Virus record (IMG/VR): IMGVR_UViG_3300018719_000041
Coordinates: 2,037-66,036 of that record
Direction: 5' to 3' (one strand)
Origin: a virus
Lineage: Duplodnaviria; Caudoviricetes
DNA: 64,000 nt
Shown piece after piece: positions 10,585-64,000 of this stretch. The notes beneath the pieces were generated by a model. The model worked only from the letters and a program-made list of their open reading frames with translations, had not been told where the DNA came from and did no database searches. The translations under genes and the position numbers were made by a program. The first letter of the stretch is position 1; every line of letters begins with the position of its first letter.

Positions 10585-10605
10585 AAATTCTCGATTGGTA
10601 GGGGC

Positions 10606-19000: not shown

Positions 19001-19012
19001 GATGATCCCCTC

Positions 19013-20150: not shown

Positions 20151-20262
20151 CCGTCCCCGTCGGATCAGGAACCTGTCTTAAGCATAGGATGAAATAAAGG
20201 CACTCGGAGGATAGGCAATGCGCCGTCCTTGAAATATACGAAGTAGCTTACGGCCTTCAGGA

Positions 20263-21318: not shown

Positions 21319-21322
21319 AAAA

Positions 21323-22567: not shown

Positions 22568-22630
22568 GTCCGCAGAGCAGAAACGCACCAGGCGGCGCGC
22601 TTCGGACTCTTGATCAGTCAGGGGGCGAGA

Positions 22631-50918: not shown

Positions 50919-50929
50919 GGATTGAGCGC

Positions 50930-51358
50930 ATGCTGTATCAGGTTGGGGCGCTGACGTTTCGCGTCACGGCGCCCAACATCCACGAGGTCGAGAAGGAGGC
51001 AGCGGCCGACTTCGCCGAGAAGGACGTCATGGGGACGCTGCGCCCCCTGGAGGCGATGGGGGAGGGGCCGAGCACCTTCACTCTTCGCGGGCGCCTTTAC
51101 CCTCGCCGGTGGGGAGGGCTCTCGAGTCTCGATCTTCTGGAGCAGATGCGCCTTGCTCAGGATTCGCACATTGTCATCCGCGGTGACGGCGTGAACCTGG
51201 GTTGGTGGGTCATCGACCGTTATCGCGAGAAGCACAATCAGATCGGGCGGACAGGTATCGGCAGCACCATCGATTACGAGGTGGTGCTGAAAAAATCCCC
51301 CAAGCCTCCGACCGCCCTGGGCTACGTCGTCACGCTGATGAGGTTGATCGGGTTATGA
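50930..51358 (+). CDS. Tail protein (P2 gpU-like)
   Basis: MLYQVG...F, LE.MGEG...TL.G and GDG.NLGW.VI motifs. Confidence 0.85.
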   Translation: MLYQVGALTFRVTAPNIHEVEKEAAADFAEKDVMGTLRPLEAMGEGPSTFTLRGRLYPRRWGGLSSLDLLEQMRLAQDSHIVIRGDGVNLGWWVIDRYREKHNQIGRTGIGSTIDYEVVLKKSPKPPTALGYVVTLMRLIGL

Positions 51359-51582
51359 CCATCGAGACGCTCCCTCCCGTGGACACCGAGTTCACGACGC
51401 TCGATCTGCTGCTCTACCGCCGTTTCAGGCGTGAGATCCTGGGCTTTGTCGAGAAGACGCTCGATCTCAATCCTGGCCTCGCCGATCTTGGTCCATTCTT
51501 GCCGATGGGAACTGAGGTGAAGATCGAAGTTCCAGTGCCCGTGAAGGCTCGCCCCGTCCGCATCCTTCGCCTGGTCAATTGA
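51355..51582 (+). CDS. Tail protein X
   Basis: VE.TL.LNPGLA.LGP.LP.GT. Confidence 0.85.
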   Translation: MTIETLPPVDTEFTTLDLLLYRRFRREILGFVEKTLDLNPGLADLGPFLPMGTEVKIEVPVPVKARPVRILRLVN

Positions 51583-51594
51583 GGTGGGTAAGCC

Positions 51595-52653
51595 ATGACA
51601 TCACATGTCATCATCAATATCAGCGAGCAGGTCTTCGAAGCGGTCACGGGATCGGGCGACGAGTCCGACAGTCTCGGCTCTCAGGTCATGTCCGTGAAGA
51701 TCACCGACGCATCGGGCAAGACGGCAGATACCTGCGAGATCGAGCTGAACGACATGGACGATCAGATCGTCATGCCGCGCAAGAACGCGCCGATCGAGGT
51801 CATCCTGTACCGGGACGACAAGCCGGGCGCGATCACCTTTAGCGGTTGGATCGGCGTCCCCAGCTCTCGCGGTGCACGCGGCAGCGGACAGGTCATCCTG
51901 ATCGAGGCCAAGGCCGCTGACATGCGCAGCGGCTTGAAGATCCGAAAAGAAAAGCATCTCGACGATTCCACGTTCGAGCAGGCTGCACAGGCGTTCGCCC
52001 CGGATGGCGTCACGGTCAAGATCGCGGGCGAACTCGGCCAGATCCGCCGCGATTACTGGTACCTGGGCCGAGAGAACTTCATGCACTGGGCGCAGCGCAC
52101 AGCGGCCGAGCTGGGCGCCACGTTCAAGATCATGGGGACCACGGCCGTCTTCGTGCCCATGAACTCAGGTCAATCCGTCTCCGGGAAGCCGCTGCAGACC
52201 ATCGAGGCGACGAAGGGCGTCAACATCATCAGCTGGGATATGTCGCCCGAGAACGAGCGCAACGACCGCGACGAATTCGAGGTCACTTGGTATGACCCCG
52301 CAGACGCCAAGTGGAAGACGCAGGACGGCACAGTCAAAGTGATCGGGCGCGGCAACACCGGCACTTATGGCTACTCCGCAGCAGACCAGGACACAGCCGG
52401 GCATATCTCGAAGTCCCTCAAGAAAAAGAAGGAGCGGGAGAGAGGCGGTGGCGAGGTTACCATCGACGGCGAGCCTGCCGCTCAAGCCGAAGCCTTGTGC
52501 GTGGTTACGATCCGCCCCGGCATCTCCGGCACCTACCTGATCGACAAGGCCGAGCACAGATGGACCCGCAAGCAGGGGTTTCTCACCAAGCTCGATTTGA
52601 AAATGCCAAAGGACGCGGCTGGAACGGACGATCGCGATTCCTCTGACGACTGA
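51595..52653 (+). CDS. Late control D / baseplate hub protein
   Basis: ITD..G..ADTCEIEL.D, GATFKI and G.Y.I....H motifs. Confidence 0.85.
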   Translation: MTSHVIINISEQVFEAVTGSGDESDSLGSQVMSVKITDASGKTADTCEIELNDMDDQIVMPRKNAPIEVILYRDDKPGAITFSGWIGVPSSRGARGSGQVILIEAKAADMRSGLKIRKEKHLDDSTFEQAAQAFAPDGVTVKIAGELGQIRRDYWYLGRENFMHWAQRTAAELGATFKIMGTTAVFVPMNSGQSVSGKPLQTIEATKGVNIISWDMSPENERNDRDEFEVTWYDPADAKWKTQDGTVKVIGRGNTGTYGYSAADQDTAGHISKSLKKKKERERGGGEVTIDGEPAAQAEALCVVTIRPGISGTYLIDKAEHRWTRKQGFLTKLDLKMPKDAAGTDDRDSSDD

Positions 52654-52676
52654 ATCCCTCACAATTGGAGACGATC

Positions 52677-53009
52677 ATGACTGCACAGGCACGGATCGAG
52701 TGGGTCGAGCTTGGGGCTGGCAAGCTTCAGGACGGCCTAGGGCACAACATCATCAAGGCCTTTCATGGAGCCTTGACGATCGGAGTCGACACCACGGCCA
52801 CCGCAGTCGGTGACCGGCCAGTAGCGCCGGTCACCGGTTTCGCCCTCGTTCGTCACGCGGGAGGCTCCGACAACCCGATCGTCGTGAACGCCTGGGGGGA
52901 CGATCCCGTCGCAACGGCAGCGAACGGCAAGGCGGTCTATCCCGGCGAAGAAATCCCGATCCATGTCGCGAAGGGCCAGAAGCTCTCGCTCATCGAGATC
53001 GCGCCATGA
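52677..53009 (+). CDS. Hypothetical virion-associated protein
   Basis: RBS GGAG; DPVAT...G.KLS.I pattern. Confidence 0.6.
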   Translation: MTAQARIEWVELGAGKLQDGLGHNIIKAFHGALTIGVDTTATAVGDRPVAPVTGFALVRHAGGSDNPIVVNAWGDDPVATAANGKAVYPGEEIPIHVAKGQKLSLIEIAP

Positions 53010-53146
53010 TCTCCTACACCTTCGGCTACGGCTACGGCTTCCGATCGAGCCGGGGGCAGGGGCGACTCACGATCACCTTCGGCGCCATCATCACTAATGG
53101 CGGCGATCCCATCGCCACAGCGCGCGGCGACATCCTCACCCTCTAG
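53006..53146 (+). CDS. Small protein (46 aa), below the ORF track cutoff
   Basis: Manual translation MISYTFGYGYGFRSSRG...; ATGA overlap; stops 8 nt before the esterase ATG. Confidence 0.5.
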   Translation: MISYTFGYGYGFRSSRGQGRLTITFGAIITNGGDPIATARGDILTL

Positions 53147-53154
53147 GTCATTCC

Positions 53155-54993
53155 ATGACGAAAATCTCTCTGACGCCGGAGAAGGTTCTCTTCTCCGAAC
53201 GGGACCGCTTGCCTGCCTACGACGCCGCCCTCGACCGCTGGGGGCATACGCAGCCCGGCTACGACATCGCTGTCATCGCCGGACAGTCCAACGCGGTCGG
53301 GTTCTCGGGCAATGCCTCGGTGGATTCCAAGATCGACTGGAAGCACAACCGCATCTGGCAGTGGTCTCCGACCGGAGCCGGTGAGCCCGACTATGCGCTC
53401 AAGCGCCTGGAGATCGAGGAGCCGCTTCGTTTCCAGCGGTTCGAGAACATTCCCGACATTGATCAGACGAAATGGGGTCCGAGCTGCGGCACCTGGTTCG
53501 GGCGCGAGAGCGTGCCGTTCTTAGGCCCAAACCGCGACATCGTGCTCATCCCGGCTGCCGTCGGCGGGTCGAACATCAACGATTGGAACCCGGTCAACGG
53601 GCCGTTCTTCCTGCTGGCGCGGGATGCGCTCCTCGCAGCTCTCGCTGCGCTTCCGAACGCGCGGTTGCGCTGGATCATCCGCGTGCAGGGCGAGGCGGAC
53701 GTGGCGCAGGGCATGGACCCGGCGGAATACGAGACCAAGCTCGACGCGGAGATCGATGGCTGGCGCGCGATCCCGACCGCCGAGACCGCCACGATCATCC
53801 TCGGCAGCATGCCGCCGAGCTGGGGCAATATCCGCGTGCCCGGCAGTCAGGGCCATGCCATCGACCAGATCCATCGCAACACGCCACTGCGCAAGCCGCG
53901 CTGCATCTACGTGCCGGGGCAGGATACCGTTGTGGTCGGTGACGGGATTCACTACGATGCCGCCGCGCAGCGGGAGAACGGCCGCCGCATGGCGATCAAG
54001 GCCCGCAGCGATTGCGTCCTGACGAATGGCGCAGTTCTCGGCGTTCCGTCCGATCTGCGCGTATCGGGAGCGACCGTCACTTGGAAGGGACCGCTGTCCG
54101 ACGCTTCACACTATGCCGTCGAGCGGAGGCCTGCGGGCTCGATGGGGGCCTGGACGCGCATCACATATAGCCCGAAACTGTTCTCCGCGCCCGGCGCCGA
54201 CGTGTCCTACACCTTCGACGATCTCAGCGGCGACACCGAGGTCCGGGTCGCGAGCATGTATCACGACAAGATTTCTGACTTCACCGACCTGGTCGTCGTA
54301 TCCTTCGTCGCGGTGCCGCAGCATACCTTCCTGCTCGACATCGCCAATGCGAGCGTGGGTGGTGACGGAAAGATCGCCAGCGTGCCGAACCTCGGCACTG
54401 ACGCGATGCCTTGGACGGCTCCGTCCGGCAAAGGACCGGAGCAGGTTGTTGTCGGCGCTCGGGCGAGCCTCGTGACGGAGCCGGCGGACGCATATCTGAC
54501 CTATGGGAACGCGCCGAGCGGCGCGTCCTATACGTGGGAGATCGTGGTCAACCACGACGACTTCGAGGCCCAAGGCGTCTACCTGATCGACGGCGGTAAC
54601 GGTGTGCCGTTCTCGATCTGGCGCGGCGGCCATCTCAGCCGCAAGGTTTATGTAGGGCAGGCGGGGGTCGGCGATCTCATCGTGGTCGGGCAGATGCAGG
54701 CCGGTGCAGATTACGTTCTGCACTCAACCTACGACCTCGCGACACAGACGCTCTCCCTTTACATCAACGGCGACCTGGTCGGGCAGGCGACGGGGGTGTC
54801 CGCCATGCCGTCGTCCGGGATCGTGCTCAACGCCCTCGCCAATGGAACCGGCGGCAACAACGGCCGGTATCACTCGGTCGGAGGCTGGATCGGCACGGCG
54901 CTGACGCCGGAACAGGTCAATTATCGCAAGACCCTCCTCGTCAATGCCCTCGATCTGACGCTCGGGGAACTCGGGCCCGAAGCTCTCGGCTGA
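53155..54993 (+). CDS. SASA/SGNH carbohydrate O-acetylesterase + FN3-like + LamG-like domains
   Basis: AGQSN, QGEAD and DGIHY motifs; C-terminal TYD.....LYING. Confidence 0.85.
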   Translation: MTKISLTPEKVLFSERDRLPAYDAALDRWGHTQPGYDIAVIAGQSNAVGFSGNASVDSKIDWKHNRIWQWSPTGAGEPDYALKRLEIEEPLRFQRFENIPDIDQTKWGPSCGTWFGRESVPFLGPNRDIVLIPAAVGGSNINDWNPVNGPFFLLARDALLAALAALPNARLRWIIRVQGEADVAQGMDPAEYETKLDAEIDGWRAIPTAETATIILGSMPPSWGNIRVPGSQGHAIDQIHRNTPLRKPRCIYVPGQDTVVVGDGIHYDAAAQRENGRRMAIKARSDCVLTNGAVLGVPSDLRVSGATVTWKGPLSDASHYAVERRPAGSMGAWTRITYSPKLFSAPGADVSYTFDDLSGDTEVRVASMYHDKISDFTDLVVVSFVAVPQHTFLLDIANASVGGDGKIASVPNLGTDAMPWTAPSGKGPEQVVVGARASLVTEPADAYLTYGNAPSGASYTWEIVVNHDDFEAQGVYLIDGGNGVPFSIWRGGHLSRKVYVGQAGVGDLIVVGQMQAGADYVLHSTYDLATQTLSLYINGDLVGQATGVSAMPSSGIVLNALANGTGGNNGRYHSVGGWIGTALTPEQVNYRKTLLVNALDLTLGELGPEALG

Positions 54994-55010
54994 CCGGCCG
55001 GGATCATAGC

Positions 55011-55036
55011 GCCGCCTTCGGGCGGCTTCTTCTTTT
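55011..55036 (+). terminator. Intrinsic terminator
   Basis: GCCGCC-TTCG-GGCGGC followed by TTCTTCTTTT. Confidence 0.7.
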
Positions 55037-55056
55037 CCACCATCAAGGGCATTTCC

Positions 55057-55761
55057 ATGCAAAGCGTGCGTGACGTTCAGATCGCGCTGCGCCGGCTCGG
55101 CTATGACCCTGGACCCGCCGACGGCATCCAGGGCCGCCGCACCATCGCGGCCATCAAGGCATTCCAGAGGGACCAGAAACTCCATGTCGACGGTGTGGTG
55201 GGCGCCGTCACCCTGGCGCGGCTCTTTCCCGGCGGGTCGACCAGGCCGGAGCCCGCAATCTTCGTGCCATGGTACGCGGAGGCCTCGCGGCTCATGGGGA
55301 CGCGGGAGATCGAAGGGCCGAAGCATTCCTCCGTCATCATGGGGTGGGCGGAACGGCTGGGGCTCTGGTATCCGTCGGACGAAACCGCGTGGTGCGGCCT
55401 CTTCGTGGCCCACTGCATCGGCGCCACGCTGCCGAACGAACCCCTGCCGGCAAACCCGCTCGGCGCCCGCAACTGGACCAAGTTCGGCCGGGCCCTGCAG
55501 GAGCCCGCCAGTGGCGCGGTGGCGGTGTTCTGGCGTGGATCCAAGACCGGATGGCAGGGGCATGTGGGCTTCGTGGCGGCGGTTCATAAGGACGACCGGA
55601 GCCTGCTGATCCGCGGCGGCAACCAGGGCAACAGCGTCTCCGACGCCTGGCTTTCCACGGACCGCCTTCTTTCTCTCCGCTGGCCGTCGACGGCGGCGCT
55701 ACCACTCTCCCGCGTCCCTGTCTCAATCGTGGGCGGAGAACTGTCCACCGACGAGGCCTGA
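55057..55761 (+). CDS. Endolysin: PG-binding + NlpC/P60 (TIGR02594-like)
   Basis: Q..L..LGY.PG.ADG..G; DETAWCG.FV, GHVGF and GGNQ motifs. Confidence 0.88.
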   Translation: MQSVRDVQIALRRLGYDPGPADGIQGRRTIAAIKAFQRDQKLHVDGVVGAVTLARLFPGGSTRPEPAIFVPWYAEASRLMGTREIEGPKHSSVIMGWAERLGLWYPSDETAWCGLFVAHCIGATLPNEPLPANPLGARNWTKFGRALQEPASGAVAVFWRGSKTGWQGHVGFVAAVHKDDRSLLIRGGNQGNSVSDAWLSTDRLLSLRWPSTAALPLSRVPVSIVGGELSTDEA

Positions 55762-55815
55762 GATCCCGCGCCCGGCCGGACCCGCCGGGCAACCTCCCAA
55801 CGAACGGAAAATCCT

Positions 55816-56331
55816 ATGAAACCATCCCACCATCTGTTTGCGGGCGCTGCGGCTCTGGCTGTGGCACTCGTGGCCTTCACTCTAGCAGCATGCCTCTCCC
55901 CGCCGGCTCAGGCCGCCACGGTCACCATCCCCTATGGCGATCAGATCGCGGAAGGCGCGCACATCGCGAGCGCGGTCATCACGCCGCTGTTGCTTCTTCT
56001 CCTGTCGAAGCTGACAGGACCTGTCGGGCTTTTCCTGCGCACCTTTCTAGGCGAGAGATTGATCCGCAACGCGGTCGATTATGCGGTTAACGCCGTCGAG
56101 GGGGCCTCCAAAGGCAAGACGCTCTCGGTCAATGTCGGTTCCGAGGTGCTTGCGCAGGCGGTTCAATATGCGCTCGACCAAGGGGCGCCGTGGCTCGTGT
56201 CGAAACTCGGTGGACCGGAAGGCATCAGGCTCAAGATCTTCAGGGCTCTGGACCTCGAGGAGGATGCCAGCGTCAAGCTGCTCAAAGCGCCTCCCGTGAA
56301 TGCCTTGGCGACCATCCGTAAGGCCAGCTGA
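55816..56331 (+). CDS. Membrane protein of the lysis cassette (holin-like)
   Basis: Multiple hydrophobic segments; follows the endolysin. Confidence 0.6.
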   Translation: MKPSHHLFAGAAALAVALVAFTLAACLSPPAQAATVTIPYGDQIAEGAHIASAVITPLLLLLLSKLTGPVGLFLRTFLGERLIRNAVDYAVNAVEGASKGKTLSVNVGSEVLAQAVQYALDQGAPWLVSKLGGPEGIRLKIFRALDLEEDASVKLLKAPPVNALATIRKAS

Positions 56332-56386
56332 TCACACCTGCGCCCCTTTGGGCGCAGGTACGTCATGAAAACAATGGGGGCAGGCA

Positions 56387-56752
56387 GTGGCTGAGCCAGT
56401 ATCTACGAGCGTCCAAACCGCTCTTCTCGTGAGCGCCGCAACGGGCGGCGCCGTCTCTGCGCTACGACGAAAGGGCCCGTGGTGGGTTCGGTTCTCCGCG
56501 GGCTTCAGTGGCGCGGCCGCGTGCTACTTTCTGACACCGATCGCCGCGCCCATCGCCGAGCTCGCGATAGAGAAGGCAATCGTCACGCTTCTCGGAACCC
56601 CCTTGGATCTCGACACAGCCGGCGTGTGGGGAGCCGTTGGTTTCCTCATCGGCTCGACCGGTCTTGAGCTGATGGAGATCCTTGTCGACGTGCTGCGGGG
56701 CGAACGACGCCTTTCCGATCTCTTGGGCGGCCGAACAAAGCCGGCCGCCTGA
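56387..56752 (+). CDS. Putative holin
   Basis: Small multi-TM protein (GGAVS, FLTP, GFLIG..G). Confidence 0.65.
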   Translation: MAEPVSTSVQTALLVSAATGGAVSALRRKGPWWVRFSAGFSGAAACYFLTPIAAPIAELAIEKAIVTLLGTPLDLDTAGVWGAVGFLIGSTGLELMEILVDVLRGERRLSDLLGGRTKPAA

Positions 56753-56812
56753 ACCAGCTCCATCCGACGCATCGGATGGGGAAGCCCTTTCTGGGCGTTT
56801 CCTCTCTGAACT

Positions 56813-56855
56813 GCCCCCGCTTGGCTCAGGCCAGGCGGGGGCTTTTTTTGTTTTT
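56813..56855 (+). terminator. Strong terminator ending the late operon
   Basis: GCCCCCGC...GCGGGGGC followed by TTTTTTTGTTTTT. Confidence 0.85.
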
Positions 56856-57180
56856 AGAGAAAATTTTTTGCTGCGAGAAGTTGATCGTCCATCAGCTTTC
56901 TACTTGTGAGCGGTGAATTTGAGGAAAGGTAGCACATCAGAAAGACCATCTACTTAGAACTGACTTTCCTCCTAGCGCTGTCGCAGTTTTCTGTATCTAG
57001 CCACCATGGTAACTTTCTGAATAGAAATAACGTACCGGTCAGGGCGGATCCTCAACTCACCCGTAGAGCCTGCAAGCACAATGAATACTGCAGGTTCAGG
57101 GTACGTGAGAGCCCTCTCTGGACTGGGCAATCGGCTCGTTGATTTATCGTTTTAATCTGTTTCCATCAGCGGATCATGCC

Positions 57181-57921
57181 ATGGTTTGCAGTGCACATAT
57201 TGACGTGAATGCTGTGTTGGAGCCCATCGAGGTGCTCAACCATTTAAACGATCCGGAAGACATCTTCAGCCATCTCGAAAAACATCTGGCCCGTTATGGG
57301 TTTACTTCATTTCTTGTTTCAAGATTGCCTTCGCAGCATCAGCGCCTGGAGCCTTACATCCTGCTCAACGGCTGGTCCCTGGACTGGTATTATCAGTACA
57401 CGAAGGTGAACCACTACGAGAGCGACCCGGTCGCGCGGCACTGCTTTACGACACCCAATCCGTTCACCTGGGATGAGCTGCCGTCCGATCTTCTGGAGAG
57501 TAGGGAGGCCCAGCTCGTGATGGACGAGGCTGTCGAGTTCGGTCTCGGCCAAGGCTTCACGGTTCCTATCCATGGATTCTTCAATTCCTTGGCTTTGGTG
57601 ACGATGGCCGGGCCTTGGATCGAAATGTCGCCGTGCGAGCGGCATCTGGTTCACCTGATGTCGATCTTTGCCCACAGCGCTGCGGAGCGGACCGTACGGA
57701 AGATTGATCTTCCCAAAACCATAGGGCTGTTGTCTGAGCGCGAGCGGGACATCCTGAGATGGCTTACAGAAGGATTGACGCTCATCGAGGCCAAGGAGCG
57801 CCTGGGCATCACCGAGAACACCGTGAACGAATACATGCGCCGGATCCGACGCAAGCTCGGGGCCAGGACGGCTGTTCAGGCTGTGGTCGAGGCTCTCCTT
57901 CGTCGTGAGATCCAACTATGA
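57181..57921 (+). CDS. LuxR-family autoinducer-binding regulator (LuxR1)
   Basis: W...Y........DP...FTW...G pocket; LSERERDILRW..EG HTH; start uncertain (57139 or 57181). Confidence 0.9.
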   Translation: MVCSAHIDVNAVLEPIEVLNHLNDPEDIFSHLEKHLARYGFTSFLVSRLPSQHQRLEPYILLNGWSLDWYYQYTKVNHYESDPVARHCFTTPNPFTWDELPSDLLESREAQLVMDEAVEFGLGQGFTVPIHGFFNSLALVTMAGPWIEMSPCERHLVHLMSIFAHSAAERTVRKIDLPKTIGLLSERERDILRWLTEGLTLIEAKERLGITENTVNEYMRRIRRKLGARTAVQAVVEALLRREIQL

Positions 57922-58196
57922 GCGAATTTAAGAAGCGCCTCGGAGCGGACACCATACCCCTGGCCCGCCATCCTGCCTTACCCGAAACCCATCTCGTGCC
58001 GACGGAACGGGAAGCAGCCCGGCTGTTGTCGCGCATCATTGAGGGACTAACGGTCCACGCTCACCACAGGGGTCGGATCGTTTTCACCTTCGACGCGGAT
58101 GTCGAGTTCCATGATCGTCTCTGCGTATGGGGGGCTGACACCGAGGATCTGGAGGACGATGCGCCACTTGAAGATGATGAATGTGAGGTCGACTAG
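57918..58196 (+). CDS. Small acidic-tailed protein coupled to LuxR1
   Basis: ATGA overlap; C-terminus DTEDLEDDAPLEDDECEVD. Confidence 0.6.
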   Translation: MSEFKKRLGADTIPLARHPALPETHLVPTEREAARLLSRIIEGLTVHAHHRGRIVFTFDADVEFHDRLCVWGADTEDLEDDAPLEDDECEVD

Positions 58197-58242
58197 CTTC
58201 AGGCGACGTTCCACATCGCGCCTATCCTGTTGGTGGCGATCC

Positions 58243-58551
58243 CTAATGCCTTTGGAACTGATTGAGAGCGTCTGTCCCTGGCGCACGAGCATATAGCTCT
58301 TTGATGTTGATCATCATTCGAATGTTGCGGCCACCGCACTCCGAGCAGCGGAGCCGGAGGGCCATGTCGGGCACGGGCAGATCAAGAGGCCAGCCTGCCA
58401 GAGGAACTTCGGCTTCATGATAGCAACGTATTGCCTCGCAGTAGGCCAAGACGGTCCGGTATCCCTCCGCGATGCTCATCCCCACGGTGACAGGCGGGAT
58501 TTCGTTGCGGTTCTCGTCATAGGCACGGCGGGGATTGCGGCGGGATCTCAT
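58243..58551 (-). CDS. Small Zn-ribbon protein
   Basis: CEAIRC.H...RLRCSECG. Confidence 0.7.
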   Translation of the reverse strand: MRSRRNPRRAYDENRNEIPPVTVGMSIAEGYRTVLAYCEAIRCYHEAEVPLAGWPLDLPVPDMALRLRCSECGGRNIRMMINIKELYARAPGTDALNQFQRH

Positions 58552-58727
58552 CTGGAAGACCGTGGCGGCACGGGAAGCCTTCTTAAGGTATGGCCCAGCA
58601 CAGCCTTTTGGAGCGCCATCCGGTGGACACCGTAGTCCGTGGCCAGCTTCTCGAACTCCTTCTCGCCTGACGCATACCGGAGGCGGTCCTCCAATACCTG
58701 ATCGACCGCCAACATTTCGCGCTTCAT
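58548..58727 (-). CDS. Small HTH-like protein
   Basis: LATDYGVHRMALQKAV; ATGA overlap with the next gene. Confidence 0.55.
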   Translation of the reverse strand: MKREMLAVDQVLEDRLRYASGEKEFEKLATDYGVHRMALQKAVLGHTLRRLPVPPRSSR

Positions 58728-58746
58728 GCCTTTGGTGACTCGATGC

Positions 58747-58761
58747 GAACGAAGAAGGAAC
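58747..58761 (-). promoter_or_regulatory. LexA (SOS) box
   Basis: GAAC-GAAGAAG-GAAC, about 20 nt upstream of ATG 58727. Confidence 0.7.
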
Positions 58762-58958
58762 ATGAAGGAGGATAGGAGAGGTGTCGAGAACCTAAAACCC
58801 CAATGACATCACGCAGTGAAGAATGGGGATAAGTTGGAAATGTGCGGCACCGAGCGAACGCGTCTGGTTCTGCCGCAGCCGAAAATGAGCAGGTCTCAAA
58901 CTGGCCGGATTGACCCAGTTAGTATCTTGTAACAGTCTCCGCCTTAAAGGGGGCGGGC

Positions 58959-59690
58959 ATGTCGCGCAAAGCCTTTGAAAGAACGCTGGAGTTCATTCGC
59001 GCGCTCGACGAGGCCAAGAGCCCGGCCGAGATCTGTGAAAGGCTTCTGGCTTCAATCAGGCAGTTCGGGGCGGAGTATGTTCTCGCGGGCACCATTCCGG
59101 GCCCAGGTACGAGCCGGCAGCAGCAGATGTCGAGTGTCGTCCTCGATCATTGGCCGAAGGAGTGGAGCCAGCGCTACTTTTCCCACGGTTACATCTTTCG
59201 GGATCCGGCGATCAAAGCGGTCAGGATGAGTCCGTCCTCGTTCCTGTGGAGTGAGCTGGAGCCTGTCTGTCGAGGCGACACCCAGGCGCGGCGCATCATG
59301 GACGAGGCCAGGGATTTCCGGCTCAAGCAGGGGGTCACGATCCCTTTGACGATGCTCGACGGCGACGTGGCGGGCTTTTCGATTGCCGGGGAGCGCCTTG
59401 ATCTGTCTCCGGAGGACCGCGGCGTTCTCACCCTCCTGGCCACTTACGCCCTCGGCCGCTCGATTTTCCTTCGAGAGGCAGGCGATCGGACAGAGATCAA
59501 GCTGACGCCTCGGGAAAAAGAGACGCTCCAGTGGGCGGCGGAAGGCAAGACCGAGTCTGAGATCGGTGAACGGATGGGCATCTCGGAGCATGGGGTCGAC
59601 AAGCATATGCGCTCTGCTCGCGAGAAGCTCGGGACGAGAACCCGAACTCACGCTGTCGCGGAAGCATTGCGCCTGCACCTCATCAAATGA
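58959..59690 (+). CDS. luxR: LuxR-family AHL receptor (LuxR2, cognate of the synthase)
   Basis: W...Y........DP...FLW...G pocket; LTPREKETLQWAAEGK HTH. Confidence 0.92.
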   Translation: MSRKAFERTLEFIRALDEAKSPAEICERLLASIRQFGAEYVLAGTIPGPGTSRQQQMSSVVLDHWPKEWSQRYFSHGYIFRDPAIKAVRMSPSSFLWSELEPVCRGDTQARRIMDEARDFRLKQGVTIPLTMLDGDVAGFSIAGERLDLSPEDRGVLTLLATYALGRSIFLREAGDRTEIKLTPREKETLQWAAEGKTESEIGERMGISEHGVDKHMRSAREKLGTRTRTHAVAEALRLHLIK

Positions 59691-59692
59691 AG

Positions 59693-59710
59693 AGTACGGG
59701 ATCGCGTACT
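59693..59710 (+). promoter_or_regulatory. lux-box-like 18-bp palindrome upstream of luxI
   Basis: AGTACGGGA|TCGCGTACT, 8/9 symmetric, 54 nt before the ATG. Confidence 0.65.
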
Positions 59711-59764
59711 TATGCCCCTTTGAGAGGCTGGCCAAATGTCAGCATCCAACCAGTGAGGGGCACC

Positions 59765-60397
59765 ATGATCCATATCGTTACGCCAGAAAATGAATACCTG
59801 TTCCGCAATGAGATGGAACAGGCCTACCGGCTGCGGCACCGCGTTTTCGTCGAGGAGAAGAAGTGGAGGGATCTCGCGAAGCCGGACGGGCGGGAGATCG
59901 ATCAGTTCGACAATGAATATGCCGTCCACATGCTCTACATCGAGGAAGGCAGGGTGCTGGGCTATCAGCGCATGTTGCCGTCCACGCGTCCGCATCTCTT
60001 GTCGGATGTACTGCCTCAGCTTTGTGAGGATGAGCGCCCGATCGGCGCTCACATTTGGGAGTGGACCCGGTATTGCGTCGAGCCGGCGCATCGCGAGCGC
60101 GGACGCACGCTAAGCCCGGTGGCGAATGCTCTTCTCTCCGGTATCGTCGAGTGGGGTCTCGAGAACGGGGTCAATTCGATCATCATTCAAATGAACCCGT
60201 TGTGGTTGCTGCGCCTGGTGCAGCTTCACTTCCGCACGATGCCTCTCGGGCTGCCCCAGAGGATCGGAGATGAAGACGTCGTCGCAGTCACGGCTTCCTT
60301 CGATCGTCGGACACTCACACGGCTTCAGGAGATGCGCGGCGACACGCGGCGTGTTCTTGCGGAGCCGTGGAGGGCGATCCAGCGCTTGGCCGGATAG
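59765..60397 (+). CDS. luxI: LuxI-family acyl-homoserine lactone synthase (BjaI/RpaI-like)
   Basis: RLRH.VFV...W, EIDQFD, RMLP, IWEWTRY and PLGLP motifs. Confidence 0.92.
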   Translation: MIHIVTPENEYLFRNEMEQAYRLRHRVFVEEKKWRDLAKPDGREIDQFDNEYAVHMLYIEEGRVLGYQRMLPSTRPHLLSDVLPQLCEDERPIGAHIWEWTRYCVEPAHRERGRTLSPVANALLSGIVEWGLENGVNSIIIQMNPLWLLRLVQLHFRTMPLGLPQRIGDEDVVAVTASFDRRTLTRLQEMRGDTRRVLAEPWRAIQRLAG

Positions 60398-60399
60398 CC

Positions 60400-60627
60400 A
60401 TGGACAGGAAAAAGGCGGAGATTGCCCTGGACGAGGAGCTGATGATCCTGCAGTTCTGGGCACATGGAGTAGACATTCTCCATAGGTTTAGTCAGGAGCA
60501 GCTCCAGGCAGTACCAGGCCTGAAGGAGGCGATCGATGCGGTCTCCAAGTTGCCGGATGAGATCGGCTGGGGTGATGAACCGCAGCACCTGCCAAGGCGC
60601 GGCAAGGATCGAACGGGCAAAGCCTAA
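60400..60627 (+). CDS. Small protein directly after luxI, CinS-like antirepressor candidate
   Basis: ATG 2 nt after the luxI stop; IL..FS......PGL.EAI..V resembles recalled Rhizobium CinS. Confidence 0.6.
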   Translation: MDRKKAEIALDEELMILQFWAHGVDILHRFSQEQLQAVPGLKEAIDAVSKLPDEIGWGDEPQHLPRRGKDRTGKA

Positions 60628-60636
60628 CAGTTTCCC

Positions 60637-61020
60637 TTAAGTCTTCGCTATGGCATTAGCGAGGTCCAGAAGAGCCCGGCGCACGGCCGGGCTCTCGATT
60701 CGGGTGAATGCTTTGGCGAGGTCTGTCCCGTCACGGCTGCTCAGAAAAGCCTGAATGGCGGTTGCCTCTTCGGTTGAGGTAGTGAGCCCTGACTGTCCCT
60801 CGAAGAAGGAAGATACCGGCACATCCAAGGCGTTGGCGATCTCTTGCAAGCGCCCTGACCCGATACGGTTCGTGCCCTTCTCGTATTTCTGAACCTGCTG
60901 GAAGGAAACCCCGAGCATCTCTCCAAGTCGCTCCTGACTGAGGCCAGCAAGCGTTCGAAGAAGACGAATACGAGCTCCGATATGTCTATCGACCGCGTTC
61001 GGGGATTTCTGAGACATCAT
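60637..61020 (-). CDS. PraR/PhrR-like XRE transcriptional regulator
   Basis: PN.VD.HIG.RIR, SQERLG..LGVSFQQVQKYEKGTNRI, VPVS.FFE and FLSS.DG..L..AF..I motifs. Confidence 0.88.
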   Translation of the reverse strand: MMSQKSPNAVDRHIGARIRLLRTLAGLSQERLGEMLGVSFQQVQKYEKGTNRIGSGRLQEIANALDVPVSSFFEGQSGLTTSTEEATAIQAFLSSRDGTDLAKAFTRIESPAVRRALLDLANAIAKT

Positions 61021-61104
61021 TCGCTCTCCTGCAGGGCTACGTACAACCTAAAGGAGAGGAAGTCTACGAGATGATACTGAGTATCGTTAAAGACGGTGGT
61101 TGAG

Positions 61105-61119
61105 GTTCAGTATCGGTTC
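61105..61119. promoter_or_regulatory. Possible LexA box in the xre/nuclease divergent region
   Basis: GTTC-AGTATCG-GTTC. Confidence 0.45.
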
Positions 61120-61430
61120 GTAATGTTCCGGTGTGGCTTGCTGGCCAACGCCAATTGCGGTCGCCACTTCAATGCCTATGAATATGGGTAGGAGAAGGAG
61201 GTGCATTTGGGCAGGCGTCTGGACAATCCTTTAAGGCCTCGTTGGCGGCGTAATCCCCAGAGGATCATCAACTCATCTGATCTCCGAAAATATGGGCTGC
61301 GGCAGAAAGAATGTGCCAACCGCAAGCACCTCTTTCCAATGCAGGATATGGTGTTGAGGCGCTCGCTTAGGCTGCTTTGGGATGGGCCTTGGTTAGTTTT
61401 ATCCCGTCTAAGCCGGATCAGGAAACGCTC

Positions 61431-62330
61431 ATGAGAGCCATTCTTCGCATCTCGGCCTTTGCCCTGGCGAGCTGTCTGCTGGTGCCGCAGGCAGGGGCGC
61501 AGAGCTGTCCTCAGCACTTCTTCAACGGAGCGCCTCCAAGCCTCCTCAACCCGAGGCTCGAGCCTAAGACCCGGCAGATCTGCTATTCCGAGTTCTCTTT
61601 GCTGCATTCAGGGCTCACACGCACCCCGCTCTGGGTTGCGGAGCATCTCACACCTGGCCGGGCAGCCGGCGCCCGTGACCTGAACCGGGTTAACAACTTC
61701 CACCCTGACCCGAACCTGCCGGCCAGCGAGCGGGCCGAACTCTCCGACTATGCCCGCAGCGGCTATGACCGCGGCCACATGGCGCCGGCTGGGGATATGG
61801 CCACGCCGCAGGGAATGGCCGAGTCGTTCTCCCTGGCCAACATGGTACCCCAGGACAGGGACAACAATCGCTATCTCTGGGAGAGCATCGAACGGGCCGT
61901 GCGGCGCTATTCCGAGCGGCACGAGGTCTATGTGGTGACCGGTCCCATCTTCCAGGGAGAGAGCCTCCAGAGCCTCAGAGGGCGGGTTCTGGTGCCCACG
62001 CATCTGGCCAAAGCAGTCTATGATCCGCAGCGCAATGCCGGGGCGGCCTACCTGGTGCCGAACCAGCCCGGGGATGATTATAAGGTCGTCTCTCTCGCCG
62101 ACCTGCAGCAGCTCTCGGGCATTGATGTCTTTCCGCAATTGCCAGCATCGGTGAAGCAGACCGCCATGGAGCTGCCGGTACCGCAGTTGCGCCGATCACG
62201 GCGCAATGCCCGCCCGGCCCCGAGACCGCCTGCGGCTGAACAGCAGTCGGCGCCAAGCCCAGGAACTCGAAACGATGATTTCGTCGGGGGAATCCTCGAC
62301 GCTATTAATGAATTCGGACGCGCCCGATGA
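61431..62330 (+). CDS. Secreted DNA/RNA non-specific endonuclease (NucA-type)
   Basis: Signal peptide; YDRGHMAP, NMVPQ...NR..W..IE and VVTGP motifs. Confidence 0.92.
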   Translation: MRAILRISAFALASCLLVPQAGAQSCPQHFFNGAPPSLLNPRLEPKTRQICYSEFSLLHSGLTRTPLWVAEHLTPGRAAGARDLNRVNNFHPDPNLPASERAELSDYARSGYDRGHMAPAGDMATPQGMAESFSLANMVPQDRDNNRYLWESIERAVRRYSERHEVYVVTGPIFQGESLQSLRGRVLVPTHLAKAVYDPQRNAGAAYLVPNQPGDDYKVVSLADLQQLSGIDVFPQLPASVKQTAMELPVPQLRRSRRNARPAPRPPAAEQQSAPSPGTRNDDFVGGILDAINEFGRAR

Positions 62331-62581
62331 CGAAGTTTCAGCCATTTTCAGACGACACTGCATCGCTCAGCATCAATGACCTGACTGTTGAGAACGGCAC
62401 GGACAAAGTCGCGATCTACGGCTCGTTGGATCTGACGAGGGACAAGGAGGGGCTCAAGAAGGCCCGTGCCTTGAAGGGGCTGGTGGATTCCGTCGTGAAG
62501 GCTTTGGCGCAGGATAAGGACCTGCCGGACAAGGCTCCGCAGGATGAGCCCACGCAGCAAGTGAAGAATCCATTTGCATAG
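62327..62581 (+). CDS. Small cytoplasmic protein coupled to the nuclease
   Basis: ATGA overlap; LTVEN..D.V.IYGSLDLTRDK.GL. Confidence 0.7.
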   Translation: MTKFQPFSDDTASLSINDLTVENGTDKVAIYGSLDLTRDKEGLKKARALKGLVDSVVKALAQDKDLPDKAPQDEPTQQVKNPFA

Positions 62582-62652
62582 GCAAGTTTTCCAATCGAAC
62601 ATGCCTCTGGAGCCCAGGCGCAAAGAAGGCCTGGGCCATAGGGGGCAGGATC

Positions 62653-62916
62653 ATGCGTAAGATTGCGGTATTCGTACTCGCGGCTATGGCCGCCGGCGCG
62701 ATTGGTCTATCGGCAGAGGCAAGCAGCCAGCAGGCCAAGGAATGGCTGATGGCCAGGGGCGGGAGCTGCAAGTCGGTCAGCACCTGTGAAGAGGCCGTCG
62801 AGCTTTGGTGCGGAGGCTACAGCAGGGCGGACGGTGATGGCGATGGCATTCCGTGTGAGAACGTCTGCCGGTCGAAGTCTCAGGTTGATGCAATCAAGCA
62901 AAGGGTTGGCTGCTGA
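62653..62916 (+). CDS. Excalibur Ca-binding domain exported protein
   Basis: Signal peptide; C....TC.EA...DGDGDGIPCE. Confidence 0.85.
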   Translation: MRKIAVFVLAAMAAGAIGLSAEASSQQAKEWLMARGGSCKSVSTCEEAVELWCGGYSRADGDGDGIPCENVCRSKSQVDAIKQRVGC

Positions 62917-62930
62917 TCCTTGGCAGCTTT

Positions 62931-63113
62931 CTACTTCAGCCAGAGTGCGAGGGCTGCCCCGGTCGCGGCCACTCCCAGGATAAGCAGGGCTCGCAGGCGC
63001 GTCCTGTGGGTAGCTACGGTGAACGCCGCTTCGGTATCGATTTCCAATTGGGTCAACCTTTCCGCGCTCTGCGGGCACTCGCACTCTACCTTCATCTCCT
63101 CGGCGATCTTCAA
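62931..63113 (-). CDS. Possible small membrane protein or remnant
   Basis: C-terminal hydrophobic stretch; start uncertain. Confidence 0.3.
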   Translation of the reverse strand: MKIAEEMKVECECPQSAERLTQLEIDTEAAFTVATHRTRLRALLILGVAATGAALALWLK

Positions 63114-63164
63114 GTCTCGGATGCTGATCCGTTAAAGTCTACTTAAGAGCAGATCTGCTTCGGC

Positions 63165-63674
63165 TTAGAGCACATTGTACTTGGGGCGCTGGAACTGCTT
63201 GTTATGTTGCAGATACTGCGCAAAGGCTTCATGCTCCAAGTACTTGATGATCCCATTAGCACGTTCGTATTCAGGGTCGGTGTGCTCCCCATTTTCGTCA
63301 GTGTCGTAGATATCGGACGGTCCGAAAGGCATGGCGCTTACATAAAGATAATTTCGCCTTGGCTTCCGGCTCTCAAGGTTCCCAGAAAATCTACTGGTAT
63401 CATGATCGAAAATGCCATGATCGCCCCATAAACGGCGTTCTTCTGGATCTCGTCTGAGATGCCGGTCATGACTTCTCCACCGCTGCCTCAACCCTCCTTT
63501 GCTAATGCTCATGCCAATATACCGGACCTTCTCCCAGGACATATTTGGGTTCGGTTCCGCATATCCAGAGAGGGCCATTCGGTAGACGCCGCCCTTTTCG
63601 CTGCCTGAAATCTGCGCTCGCTCGTGCCAGATGAACCAGGGGGAGAAAATGAGGTCGGGAATCTTGATGCTCAT
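63165..63674 (-). CDS. GIY-YIG-like nuclease family protein
   Basis: GVY...YIG.S...LRQRW..H, late E and P.YN; AT-richer than flanks. Confidence 0.65.
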   Translation of the reverse strand: MSIKIPDLIFSPWFIWHERAQISGSEKGGVYRMALSGYAEPNPNMSWEKVRYIGMSISKGGLRQRWRSHDRHLRRDPEERRLWGDHGIFDHDTSRFSGNLESRKPRRNYLYVSAMPFGPSDIYDTDENGEHTDPEYERANGIIKYLEHEAFAQYLQHNKQFQRPKYNVL

Positions 63675-63739
63675 CGGTGGTCCTTCTAGCGATACAAGGG
63701 ATCATGGTGGATCCCGTCGAGAAGCTTGACCATTCAACT

Positions 63740-64000
63740 TTAGGCGCCACGTGCCGCTAGCAGGCGCCCCGTCGTGGCCTTGATCTCCTCCGCCGCCTTC
63801 AGCCCTCGAATGCCGATCACGCCGCGGTCGATAGTCTTCCCATCCGCATCCTTCCTACCGTTGAAGAAGGTATCCCGCTGCTCCTTACTCATCTTTAAGA
63901 CGGCTCGGGCCTCGCATTCATGTTGCCATTCCTCAGACCAGGTGTTGACGGGCTGGCCGGTGAGCTCGGAAATTGCGGTCGTCTCGCGGGAGTAGGTCAT
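63740..64000 (-). CDS. Conserved hypothetical protein of phage-associated type
   Basis: V.TWSEEW.HECEAR.VL ... RG..AA pattern. Confidence 0.65.
   Translation of the reverse strand: MTYSRETTAISELTGQPVNTWSEEWQHECEARAVLKMSKEQRDTFFNGRKDADGKTIDRGVIGIRGLKAAEEIKATTGRLLAARGA

Follow-up and report, generated by a model that had tools for sequence, protein, structure and literature searches.

Prophages of Phaeobacter and Roseobacter carry hth/xre-luxR-luxI modules that decide between lysis and lysogeny, some of them requiring the XRE protein, and the accessible part of that report places such prophage modules in the Roseobacter clade only (Bunsick et al., bioRxiv 10.64898/2026.07.02.736140). Other phages, for example VP882, bear a solo receptor of the LuxR/VqmA type for a bacterial autoinducer, as the available sections describe (PMC6456758; 10.64898/2026.07.02.736140). 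CinS of Rhizobium leguminosarum and MmaP of Methylobacterium fujisawaense are, in the accessible portions of two accounts, small proteins encoded after a synthase gene, co-expressed with it and targeting PraR (PMC10790750; PMC4149787). LuxI/LuxR circuits in prophages are already known from Roseobacter; the one described here, from a 64,000-nucleotide stretch of viral DNA that we call the window, differs in architecture and role. In the reading that we prefer, at a probability of about 65%, the accessory arm of a prophage holds an inserted, complete copy of the Microvirga luxR2-luxI-orf75-xre locus, which serves as lysogenic-conversion cargo and not as a lysis-lysogeny switch.

The window belongs to a 66,036-bp IMG/VR record of the class provirus (completeness estimate 100), whose first base marks the stop codon of the integrase gene and whose last base, position 64000 of the window, marks the start codon of a DUF7696 gene. 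With its order of integrase, RecT/exonuclease, cI-like S24 repressor, primase/helicase, gpA-type terminase, lambda-type portal, tail genes and lysis genes, it is a temperate prophage, lambda-like and to all appearance complete, whose host is a Microvirga-like bacterium from soil. The S24 protein is likely the SOS-cleavable switch of the same prophage. Homologues of the lysis cassette occur in the related phage L075 (65% and 69% identity), in which other genes follow the lysis cassette and no DUF7696 gene lies within 4 kb of it. Between the lysis terminator and the phage genes near att, the right arm of the window forms an accessory region of the moron type, and G+C falls to 0.56-0.60 past 56 kb.

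Table 1. Features of the prophage window discussed in the text
Feature	Coordinates	Strand	Evidence or remark
cI-like repressor	10842-11612	-	Pfam HTH_3 + Peptidase_S24
Phage lysis cassette	55057-56752	+	Pfam; PHROGs
Endolysin	55057-55761	+	PG_binding_1 + CHAP (Pfam); endolysin families (PHROGs)
171-aa membrane protein	55816-56331	+	lysis cassette member
Holin-like protein	56387-56752	+	PHROGs phrog_2359 holin, 5.7e-05
Intrinsic terminator closing late/lysis operon	56813-56852	+	13-bp stem (56813-56842), 11 GC pairs, then T-run TTTTTTTGTT
LuxR1, extra AHL-receptor-type regulator	57181-57921	+	Autoind_bind 1.7e-29, GerE 1e-13 (Pfam)
ORF92	57918-58196	+	overlaps LuxR1 stop; acidic C-terminus
ORF71 + ORF102, phage terminal-module genes	58548-58763 + 58243-58551	-	GTTC-N7-GTTC box at 58747-58761
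LuxR2, receptor of conserved cassette	58959-59690	+	Autoind_bind 1.9e-27, GerE 3.3e-14 (Pfam)
Lux-box-like palindrome AGTACGGGATCGCGTACT	59693-59710		55 bp upstream of luxI ATG
LuxI, acyl-homoserine-lactone synthase family	59765-60397	+	PF00765 Autoind_synth 1.1e-22
ORF75, small helical protein, translationally coupled to luxI	60400-60627	+	ATG two bases past luxI stop
XRE-family regulator	60637-61020	-	HTH_3 3.6e-14 (Pfam); convergent with luxI-orf75
Accessory nuclease module	61377-63135	+	Pfam
Endonuclease_NS	61377-62330	+	Pfam; nuclease module
ORF84	62327-62581	+	nuclease module
Excalibur-domain protein	62653-62916	+	Pfam; nuclease module
ORF71b	62920-63135	+	nuclease module
ORF169	63165-63674	-	ORF list
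DUF7696 phage gene, last gene of provirus record	63740-64000	-	PF24751 6.5e-21; phrog_11642 2.9e-09

The initial annotation had listed two LuxR genes, luxI with a coupled 75-aa ORF, and an XRE gene in convergent orientation behind the lysis terminator, and all are present and intact close to where it had placed them. Its observation that both receptors retain their AHL-pocket residues was likewise borne out by alignments to the solved TraR, LasR and RhlR chains, with columns matched by eye: W, Y, D, P, W and G in the ligand domain and E, L and G in the HTH stand at canonical positions in both proteins. For LuxR2, nine of nine residues line up with TraR 1H0M, at positions that we take to be W57, Y61, D70, P71, W85, G113, E178, L182 and G188 in TraR numbering. 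Against the cassette LuxR of nine Microvirga-type loci, LuxR2 has identities of 54-81%. The LuxR1 ORF opens at 57139 (TTG), with a probable ATG start at 57181; its closest relative in a large protein set is 57% identical, and identities in five Microvirga genomes reach at most 38%. The genes thereby form a sequence-intact circuit, and the proposal of a self-contained module that would make and sense a signal holds at this level. Pfam, PHROGs and NCBIfam yielded no family for ORF92 or ORF169.

The luxI start (ATG 59765; stop 60395-60397) is kept in 10 of 10 aligned loci. The best solved relatives of LuxI are BjaI (5w8a, 1.7e-35), 6wns (2.1e-35) and RpaI (6wn0, 9.8e-35), compared with 8.9e-20 for TofI, 1.4e-14 for LasI and 8.9e-07 for EsaI. 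Judged by sequence, LuxI belongs to the BjaI/RpaI-like group and not to a CinI-like one. Because its nearest structures are those of what we take to be the acyl-CoA-using BjaI/MesI/RpaI group, an unusual acyl group is possible. The LuxI tree has no supported clade around the window's protein, and the nearest rows by path are Microvirga. The 18-bp palindrome previously noticed before luxI was confirmed, and its core (GTACG-N6-CGTAC, 59694-59709) lies upstream of luxI in all ten Microvirga-type loci, nine in register and one (L011) shifted by an insertion. Within the 64-kb window there is no second luxI-type box, even at one mismatch.

ORF75 is kept after luxI in eight loci and belongs to a family with 71 representatives at E<=0.001, every one small and unnamed; its model comprises four helices (mean pLDDT 79). 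The label cinS-like fits its position, as a small ORF coupled to luxI, but extends no further. Only 9 bp separate the stop codons of ORF75 and XRE, and cassette-linked XRE homologues in L004, L009, L011, L015 and L016 are 37-54% identical. The XRE is also 42-44% identical to a metK-linked XRE present in five of five Microvirga genomes examined, and metK synteny is the criterion for naming PraR in the available text of PMC10790750. By these identities the cassette XRE is a paralogue of the PraR family, so that the term PraR-like is apt as a statement of paralogy.

In other Microvirga species, luxR2-luxI-orf75-xre is an ordinary chromosomal quorum-sensing locus, and the notion of a phage-specific circuit has to be given up. 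Across nine Microvirga-type loci (L003-L011) the gene order is identical and LuxI is 76-89% identical, and the flanks are cellular genes that vary between species and include no protein of this phage. The locus of M. pakistanensis NCCP-1258 (L003) resembles that of the window in its four genes, their order and the box upstream of luxI, with identities of 89% for LuxI, 77% for LuxR and 72% for ORF75. Whereas the Microvirga loci have cellular flanks, the cassette in the window has phage flanks and is joined by the extra LuxR1.

The ORF71 family is present in 28 of 76 Microvirga genomes, and the phage isolates phiRSP, Mano, Mica and Persinger encode homologues of DUF7696. G028 has a prophage remnant of 16.5 kb between tRNA-Gln and a 46-nt repeat of that tRNA; starting with the tRNA, it reads DUF7696, then, 26 bp away, the ORF71 homologue, and after these the holin, endolysin (at 61% identity to that of the window), tail and integrase genes. 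G057 and G059 have the same end (tRNA-Pro, DUF7696, ORF71 homologue), followed by tail-like ORFs and, in G057 only, an endolysin-like ORF, as read by eye from the translations; by coordinates, the pair is also no more than 1.5 kb apart in G006 (two loci), G043 and G014. Since ORF71 and DUF7696 directly adjoin at the tRNA-proximal end of related prophages in G028, G057 and G059, three other Microvirga genomes, there should be phage backbone on both sides of the cassette; in the window, 4,977 bp that include the cassette come between the two genes. In related elements, the distance from DUF7696 to the att or tRNA copy is 1.2-1.5 kb. G001 carries an integrase 84-88% identical to the window's beside tRNA-Phe, an exact 23-nt copy of the tRNA-Phe 3' end 7.6 kb off and, inside this att-bounded element and 1.2 kb from the tRNA copy, a DUF7696 homologue (84% identical). 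The integration target may accordingly be tRNA-Phe, integrase similarity being the sole basis for this assignment. The orientation of DUF7696 fits the right end of a leftward-extending element, as in G001 and G028. When the window was searched for the ends of tRNA-Phe, tRNA-Gln and tRNA-Pro, no copy exceeded 12 nt, so there is no internal att core, and the ORF list and Pfam revealed no integrase or transposase in the stretch from 56.8 to 63.7 kb. With 64000 as the last position of the record, attR is off-record. An early caveat held that the module might be adjacent host or island DNA, but the ORF71/DUF7696 bracket and the missing internal att core place it very probably inside the prophage, most likely as cargo.

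An unlikely alternative is that the prophage stops shortly behind the lysis terminator or ORF71. The stretch at 57-64 kb (or 58.96-63.7 kb) would then belong to the host chromosome or to an old island and would have entered the provirus call via a stray DUF7696 gene beyond it. The nine chromosomal cassettes, the lower G+C past 56 kb and a record ending before any attR would all suit such a boundary error. DUF7696 is, in addition, multicopy and found in degraded contexts such as G005, where a 19-nt att-like copy lies on the 3' side of a DUF7696 homologue with metabolic genes beyond, so the gene is not always within an intact element. In L081, luxI-orf75 (77% and 56% identical) lies past tRNA-Gln and an integrase and hence outside a related phage, and in G028 the att copy has one LuxR gene and pieces of luxI immediately outside it. 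These two cases are a warning on provirus boundaries, which do overshoot; they also suggest a plausible capture route for the cassette. What speaks against a misplaced boundary is that the window holds no att-core copy and 56.8-63.7 kb no second integrase, together with the orientation of DUF7696 and its adjacency to ORF71 in other elements. A position inside the prophage is also favoured by a second, unrelated provirus, L061 (sister contig L060), in which luxI (at 65% identity), luxR and a member of the ORF75 family (hmmsearch 7.6e-10) lie between endolysin/tail-fibre genes and the integrase.

It is still less probable that the genes are a Phaeobacter-like decision circuit, in which a phage-made signal, LuxR1 and/or LuxR2 and XRE would hold lysogeny or time induction. 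The available part of 10.64898/2026.07.02.736140 provides a precedent in prophage xre-luxR-luxI modules, one phage here bears two receptors and an XRE, and SOS-type boxes are close by. The window contains six LexA-type boxes (GTTC-N7-GTTC) against 1.86 expected, a count reached in 5 of 100 shuffles. The initial annotation had seen LexA-box genes interleaved with the module, and two boxes do lie in the region: the first, at 58747-58761, recurs where ORF71 homologues begin in four of four loci examined, but that at 61105-61119 is absent from homologous contexts (0/3 nuclease-upstream and 0/4 xre-upstream stretches). The decision circuit is opposed by an architecture of luxR-luxI-orf75 with convergent xre and without a divergent hth partner, by a position at the late end, away from the immunity region, and by the plain chromosomal nature of the cassette in other species. 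Moreover, the phage retains its own cI-like S24 repressor and the only luxI-type box is the one before luxI; the 64-kb window thus gives no sign of a link between cassette and phage switch, and the idea that the module tunes induction was not upheld. Least probable is that 57-64 kb is what remains of an older element at the same tRNA, or an island lying within the prophage, in which case the cassette would be mobile yet not packaged with this phage: the 7.6-kb G001 island with its near-identical integrase and DUF7696, the array-like G005 at tRNA-Phe and the nuclease module, found elsewhere among ORFs judged transposase-like by eye (G057 and G059, two copies, 81-83% nucleotide identity), would agree with it, but the window lacks an internal att copy, the stretch lacks a second integrase or transposase, chance would have had to separate ORF71 from DUF7696, and 66 kb is in our judgement plausible for this kind of phage.

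If the cassette is inserted prophage cargo, the same region would have acquired with it the second, divergent receptor LuxR1 and the nuclease module. LuxI would produce an acyl-homoserine lactone, and LuxR2 with this signal would bind the GTACG-N6-CGTAC box and turn on luxI-orf75 in a positive loop, as the conservation of the box suggests. ORF75 may be the output branch, acting on a PraR-family XRE, most simply its convergent neighbour; gene position and paralogy only point to this step, CinS and MmaP acting on PraR. LuxR1 could sense the same signal or another. The module would give the lysogen a communication channel or alter an existing one, and the phage would carry it to new hosts. Given that the cassette is chromosomal in related species, the phage is a probable vehicle by which an entire channel of bacterial communication, a host-type set of signal-making and signal-sensing genes, passes from one host to another.

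Compared with known systems, the window shares with the Roseobacter prophage modules a prophage-borne AHL synthase, LuxR and XRE, and we count as a further likeness that those modules act as exchangeable cassettes, as set out in the accessible text (10.64898/2026.07.02.736140). The same text describes them as xre-luxR-luxI with divergent hth, replacing cI/Cro and working as a lysis-lysogeny switch (10.64898/2026.07.02.736140), whereas the window has luxR-luxI-orf75 with convergent xre as late-end cargo, keeps a cI-like S24 repressor and, in a soil bacterium of the Hyphomicrobiales, bears a copy of the locus that its host genus has on the chromosome. With CinR/CinI/CinS and MmaR/MmaI/MmaP it has in common a small ORF directly after the synthase gene and a PraR-type XRE, the likeness of ORF75 to CinS and MmaP being one of gene position only. 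In the CinS/MmaP systems praR is unlinked and beside metK, according to the available portion of PMC10790750, whereas the window has a PraR paralogue within the cassette and, unlike both systems, a LuxI nearest to BjaI/RpaI-type synthases. Phages with solo receptors, as far as the accessible account goes (PMC6456758), listen only, whereas the window's phage adds a synthase and a putative output branch.

The source record (66,036 bp, of which the window covers bases 2037-66036) is classed as a provirus in IMG/VR with a completeness estimate of 100, and judged by its predicted genes it is a lambda-like temperate phage (see table). Since the record opens at the integrase stop codon and closes at the start codon of its last gene, DUF7696, both of its ends are gene edges set by the provirus caller and not att sites; attL is off the record too, because the record begins at the integrase stop. 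A search of the window and of the record's first 4 kb for tRNA genes found none. Between the replication and packaging genes lies a second stretch of low G+C content (19000-23000; 0.54-0.58 vs 0.60-0.66 elsewhere), which holds few confident ORFs.

Features of the prophage and of its right end (window coordinates unless marked as record)
Feature	Position	Strand	Remarks
Tyrosine integrase	record 1-1170	-	389 aa
GTTC-N7-GTTC box	10570-10584	-	in or beside ORF 10510-10845
cI-like protein	10842-11612		HTH_3 + Peptidase_S24
RecT; YqaJ-type exonuclease	window		
Primase; AAA_25 helicase	window		replication genes
gpA-type large terminase; lambda-type portal	window		packaging genes
Minor tail protein; SASA/lectin-type fibre-like protein	window		tail genes
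Endolysin; holin-like protein	window		lysis genes; endolysin with PG_binding_1 + CHAP domains
Strong intrinsic terminator	56813-56842		closes lysis genes
LuxR1	57181-57921		Autoind_bind + GerE two-domain build (Pfam)
ORF71-ORF102	58243-58763	-	phage gene pair
LexA-type box	58747-58761		start of ORF71
LuxR2	58959-59690		Autoind_bind + GerE two-domain build (Pfam)
18-bp palindrome	59693-59710		overlaps only the space after the luxR2 stop
LuxI	59765-60397		PF00765 match above curated cut-off
ORF75	60400-60627		same direction as luxI; ATG two bases past luxI stop
XRE	60637-61020		convergent with ORF75
LexA-type box	61105-61119		
Nuclease module	61377-63135	+	Endonuclease_NS, 84-aa ORF, Excalibur-domain protein
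DUF7696	63740-64000	-	last gene

All genes and elements that the initial annotation had listed for a quorum-sensing (QS) circuit right of the lysis genes were found in the window. LuxI scores 80.9 bits against PF00765 (cut-off 24; 81.5 bits in the genome search) and, when aligned to BjaI (5w8a/5w8c) with columns matched by eye, has the N-terminal R..F..W and E/D.D..D motifs as well as the later R and E..R, which we take to be the conserved residues of the family. Alignment to solved TraR, LasR and RhlR chains, again with columns matched by eye, bore out the proposal that the AHL pockets are intact: both LuxR1 and LuxR2 carry all nine residues, six in the pocket and three in the HTH, of the list that we assume to be canonical. 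Among solved enzymes, LuxI is nearest to BjaI 5w8a, 6wns and RpaI 6wn0 (E about 1e-35); TofI (E 8.9e-20), LasI (1.4e-14) and EsaI (8.9e-07) are far more distant. The entries 5w8a, 6wns and 6wn0 (BjaI/RpaI/MesI) presumably form the acyl-CoA-using subgroup, the others compared being of the ACP type, and by these matches LuxI appears closer to the acyl-CoA-type enzymes; its predicted product is therefore possibly an AHL with a branched or aromatic acyl group. A CinI-type synthase was considered and rejected, the nearest solved relatives being BjaI/RpaI-like. The palindrome noticed upstream of luxI is present, and its core, GTACG-N6-CGTAC, precedes luxI in 10 of 10 aligned loci. Because this core is kept while the remainder of the spacer varies, there is good comparative evidence that it is a candidate LuxR binding site, and a conserved box in this position suggests LuxR2-dependent positive feedback on luxI-orf75. 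The best matches of LuxR1 reach 38% identity in five Microvirga genomes and 57% in a large protein collection.

We traced the origin of the cassette, luxR2-luxI-orf75-xre, by scanning for LuxI relatives with one genome per species, which yielded 57 loci. The nearest nine, at 76-89% identity, belong to Microvirga species or soil MAGs; luxR and luxI occur together in all nine, an ORF75 homologue in seven and a convergent xre in four. Nucleotide similarity begins at the luxR2 ATG and ends at the ATG of xre. The flanks of these nine loci vary among species and encode a hydrolase, an HlyD-type protein, serralysin/RTX-like proteases, an ABC ATPase, KaiC, and EamA and AI-2E transporters; none of the proteins of the window phage is found there. 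On these comparisons the cassette is the normal chromosomal QS locus of the genus, LuxR1 not included. In a LuxI tree of 33 rows plus the window, drawn from 59 loci after exclusion of short or partial matches and duplicates (loci L016, L027, L029, L030, L032, L036, L038 and L040-L059), the Microvirga part is a polytomy. A plasmid origin was rejected, since plasmid and chromid matches reach just 62-71% identity; plasmid pMc1192 of M. ciceri has a lux pair with neither ORF75 nor xre annotated alongside, in a gene table that may be incomplete. A genus-wide DNA search of 76 Microvirga genomes with 56.7-64 kb gave no match above 83% identity, and the lysis region was matched in a single one of these genomes. 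Among metagenome contigs, a set that may lack records close to the window, an exact 47-mer had no match, and a protein scan with a 171-aa lysis-region protein gave no confirmed locus among 598 pattern matches.

The position of ORF75 right after luxI is kept in eight loci, so that the description of a 'cinS-like' ORF holds for its size, its place directly 3' of the synthase gene and its orientation. ORF75 has no match in Pfam, PHROGs or NCBIfam; its family comprises 71 small unnamed proteins, 35 of them at E<=1e-10. No ORF75-family match lay outside Microvirga-type loci and the provirus contigs L060/L061, and a word-indexed protein search returned only two proteins. The model of ORF75 has four helices (mean pLDDT 79), and a Foldseek search against the PDB gave no match at E<=0.001. 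The convergent regulator had been called PraR-like. As PraR/PhrR-type we counted any protein of roughly 130-145 aa that has an XRE HTH and is a relative of the regulator linked to metK, and the window XRE is of this kind: over residues 3-125 it is 42-44% identical to the metK-linked XRE in all five Microvirga genomes examined, in each of which that gene lies about 0.85 kb upstream of metK. Synteny with metK is the basis on which PraR was named in PMC10790750. Given its identity to this metK-linked XRE, whose synteny defines PraR, the cassette XRE is by sequence a PraR paralogue; it is not the orthologue, because its gene sits between orf75 and a nuclease gene and not beside metK and a tRNA methyltransferase gene. 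In two published systems, a small-protein gene right after the synthase gene encodes a product that binds the XRE regulator PraR: CinS in Rhizobium, and MmaP in Methylobacterium, which belongs to the same family as Microvirga (PMC10790750). By analogy, it is reasonable that ORF75 may act on the cassette XRE, or on PraR itself. A complex prediction for XRE and ORF75, run without control pairs, scored 0.30 against a mark of 0.32 and speaks neither for nor against an interaction. A link to MmaI/MmaP was rejected: the Methylobacterium loci, from species that PMC10790750 does not name, have LuxI proteins 58-59% identical to that of the window and another conserved ORF after luxI, of about 100 aa in nine loci. 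Most loci of this LuxI group (L012-L034) have some small ORF directly after luxI, of differing families, and it may hold generally that a fast-evolving slot for small proteins follows the synthase gene.

Because attL and attR are both off the record, we compared related elements to place the cassette inside or outside the prophage. DUF7696 is recognised by Pfam (6.5e-21), is a member of a PHROG family and has homologues in four isolated phages. In M. pakistanensis (genome G001), an integrase 84-88% identical to that of the window directly follows tRNA-Phe(GAA), the last 23 nt of the tRNA-Phe region are repeated exactly 7.6 kb away, and a DUF7696 homologue lies inside the repeats, 1.2 kb from the 23-nt repeat, its orientation towards the integrase matching that in the window. 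In a second genome (G028), a 16.5-kb prophage remnant between tRNA-Gln and a 46-nt copy of it contains, in order from the tRNA, DUF7696 (82% identical), an ORF71 homologue (50% identical, E 2e-20) 26 bp away, holin, endolysin (61% identical to that of the window), tail genes and integrase. Two further genomes (G057, G059) have DUF7696 and then an ORF71 homologue beside tRNA-Pro, followed by ORFs judged by eye from translations to be tail-like and, in G057 only, endolysin-like; by coordinates, homologues of the two genes lie <=1.5 kb apart in G006 (two loci), G043 and G014. In the window, ORF71 and DUF7696 keep this order and orientation at a distance of 4,977 bp; between them are luxR2-luxI-orf75, xre, the nuclease module and ORF169, with no integrase. 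The ends of tRNA-Phe, tRNA-Gln and tRNA-Pro have no copy of more than 12 nt anywhere in the window. The simplest reading of this arrangement is that cargo was inserted into a terminal phage module and that attR would lie shortly beyond 64000. Our preferred view, at a probability of roughly 0.65, is of a cassette inside the att-bounded prophage that serves as conversion cargo. Of the proposed 'phage-associated' module, the phage-borne part probably stands, given the ORF71/DUF7696 bracket and the lack of an att-core copy inside it, whereas a phage-specific cassette does not, as it is chromosomal in relatives. Another IMG/VR provirus (L061, 63.7 kb; L060 is its sister contig) carries a luxI 65% identical to that of the window, an ORF75-family gene and a luxR between endolysin/tail-fibre genes and the integrase.

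Several features of these elements are worth recording in their own right. DUF7696 is multicopy in the genus, with up to four listed places per genome (G057), and in the cases examined (G001, G028, G057, G059) it sits at the end of prophages or remnants away from the integrase, 1.2-1.5 kb from a tRNA or att copy, so that it could be usable as a prophage-end marker in this group. The M. pakistanensis island at tRNA-Phe (L069, 12346-20028) also contains a phosphotransferase-like ORF and two large ORFs on a 15-nt periodic repeat (pentapeptide-repeat-like). The nuclease module is 81-83% identical in nucleotide sequence to loci of G057 and G059 (L063, L064, L065); G059 has two copies, the surroundings in both genomes contain transposase- and Tn7-like ORFs (judged by eye), and the module appears to be a separate mobile accessory unit.

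The main rival explanation, that the cassette is a boundary artefact, has precedents among these very elements. In IMGVR_UViG_3300048852_000120 (L081, 1-2709), whose early genes resemble those of the window phage, the 3' part of a luxI (77%) and an ORF75 homologue (56%) lie outside the phage, past tRNA-Gln and the integrase, and are host DNA taken in by an overshooting provirus boundary. Immediately beyond the att copy on the integrase side of the tRNA-Gln remnant in G028 (L068, 11640-13289) are a LuxR gene and luxI fragments of a different type, with 31-46% identity to those of the window, and in M. vignae (G005) a 19-nt att-like copy on the other side of the DUF7696 homologue is followed by metabolic genes. 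QS genes at the edges of provirus calls can thus be host DNA. With the cassette bracketed by ORF71 and DUF7696 and no att-core copy within, we regard an artefact as unlikely here. Among public runs a single one was listed as matching the window, a biocrust metagenome that is probably its source, and no RNA run was. One 69,302-bp contig of that run, not independent of the window, spans 50000-63953 without any difference or joint, breaks off in the repeated DUF7696 gene and is silent on attR. These cases show QS loci to be frequent neighbours of the tRNA sites that such phages use, which calls for care over boundaries and equally points to a plausible route of capture, through faulty excision or through illegitimate recombination.

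The proposal that the module tunes induction found no sign in its favour. The luxI-type box occurs once in the 64 kb even when one mismatch is allowed, the phage has its own cI-like S24 repressor, and elsewhere the cassette is a plain chromosomal locus; on present evidence, such tuning is not likely. The LexA-box genes said to be interleaved with the circuit hold up in part. The box at the ORF71 start is kept at this place in homologues, in four of four loci examined, fused to the annotated ATG ('ATGTTC...GTTC'; besides the window, L067 17019-17249, L080 12704-12874 and L079 8277-8423), whereas the box right of xre is absent from seven homologous upstream stretches; the single conserved SOS-type box belongs to ORF71-ORF102 and not to the QS genes. 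The ORF71 family occurs in 28 of the 76 Microvirga genomes, often in multiple copies, and by coordinates ORF102 lies directly behind ORF71 in at least seven loci; ORF71-ORF102 is probably an SOS-controlled phage-end operon. The 3' end of the cI-like gene has a further GTTC-N7-GTTC box some 260 bp away.

A more far-reaching scenario, which in all its parts together we consider improbable, would have a soil temperate phage capture a whole host QS 'dialect' from host loci beside tRNA att sites (as in L081 and G028) by faulty excision and spread it among Microvirga strains. The set would comprise synthase, receptor, small output protein, that protein's PraR-type target and a second, foreign receptor. 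The signal of lysogens would mark them and PraR-controlled surface or motility behaviour would be rewired, while the two receptors could weigh own against non-lysogen signal and feed the terminal phage genes that carry SOS boxes. Quite apart from this scenario, packaging of the cassette with the phage would mean that a virus moves an entire cell-to-cell signalling channel, and not a receptor alone, between strains of a biocrust or rhizosphere genus. The system lends itself to asking whether lysogeny alters the social behaviour of soil bacteria and whether cargo circuits are raw material for evolving phage decision switches.

Phage-borne solo QS receptors are established. The only LuxI/LuxR circuits of prophages so far described are switches of marine Roseobacter, in a July 2026 preprint (10.64898/2026.07.02.736140). 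There, hth | xre-luxR-luxI modules in each of two Phaeobacter prophages produce signals of their own and, instead of cI/Cro, decide between lysis and lysogeny. Such systems were present in 53 of 93 Roseobacter prophages, and the authors' screen did not find these prophage modules outside that clade. Titles and abstract openings of the literature on Microvirga QS and prophage-encoded synthases contained nothing describing a like case. If our reading is true, the case would reveal a second way for phages to acquire such circuits, by taking up the host's own locus as cargo, and would do so in a second bacterial order. The Roseobacter switch is an xre-luxR-luxI operon with a divergent hth, whereas the window has luxR2-luxI-orf75 with a convergent xre, and ORF71/ORF102 lie upstream of luxR2. 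The Roseobacter switch replaces cI/Cro, whereas the window phage retains its cI-like repressor. The cassette further differs in its cargo position at the late end, in being a copy of the host genus's locus, and in coming from Hyphomicrobiales in a biocrust metagenome. Set against the preprint, the present case departs in five respects: the gene order, the position, the coexisting cI-type repressor, the origin, and the taxon and habitat.
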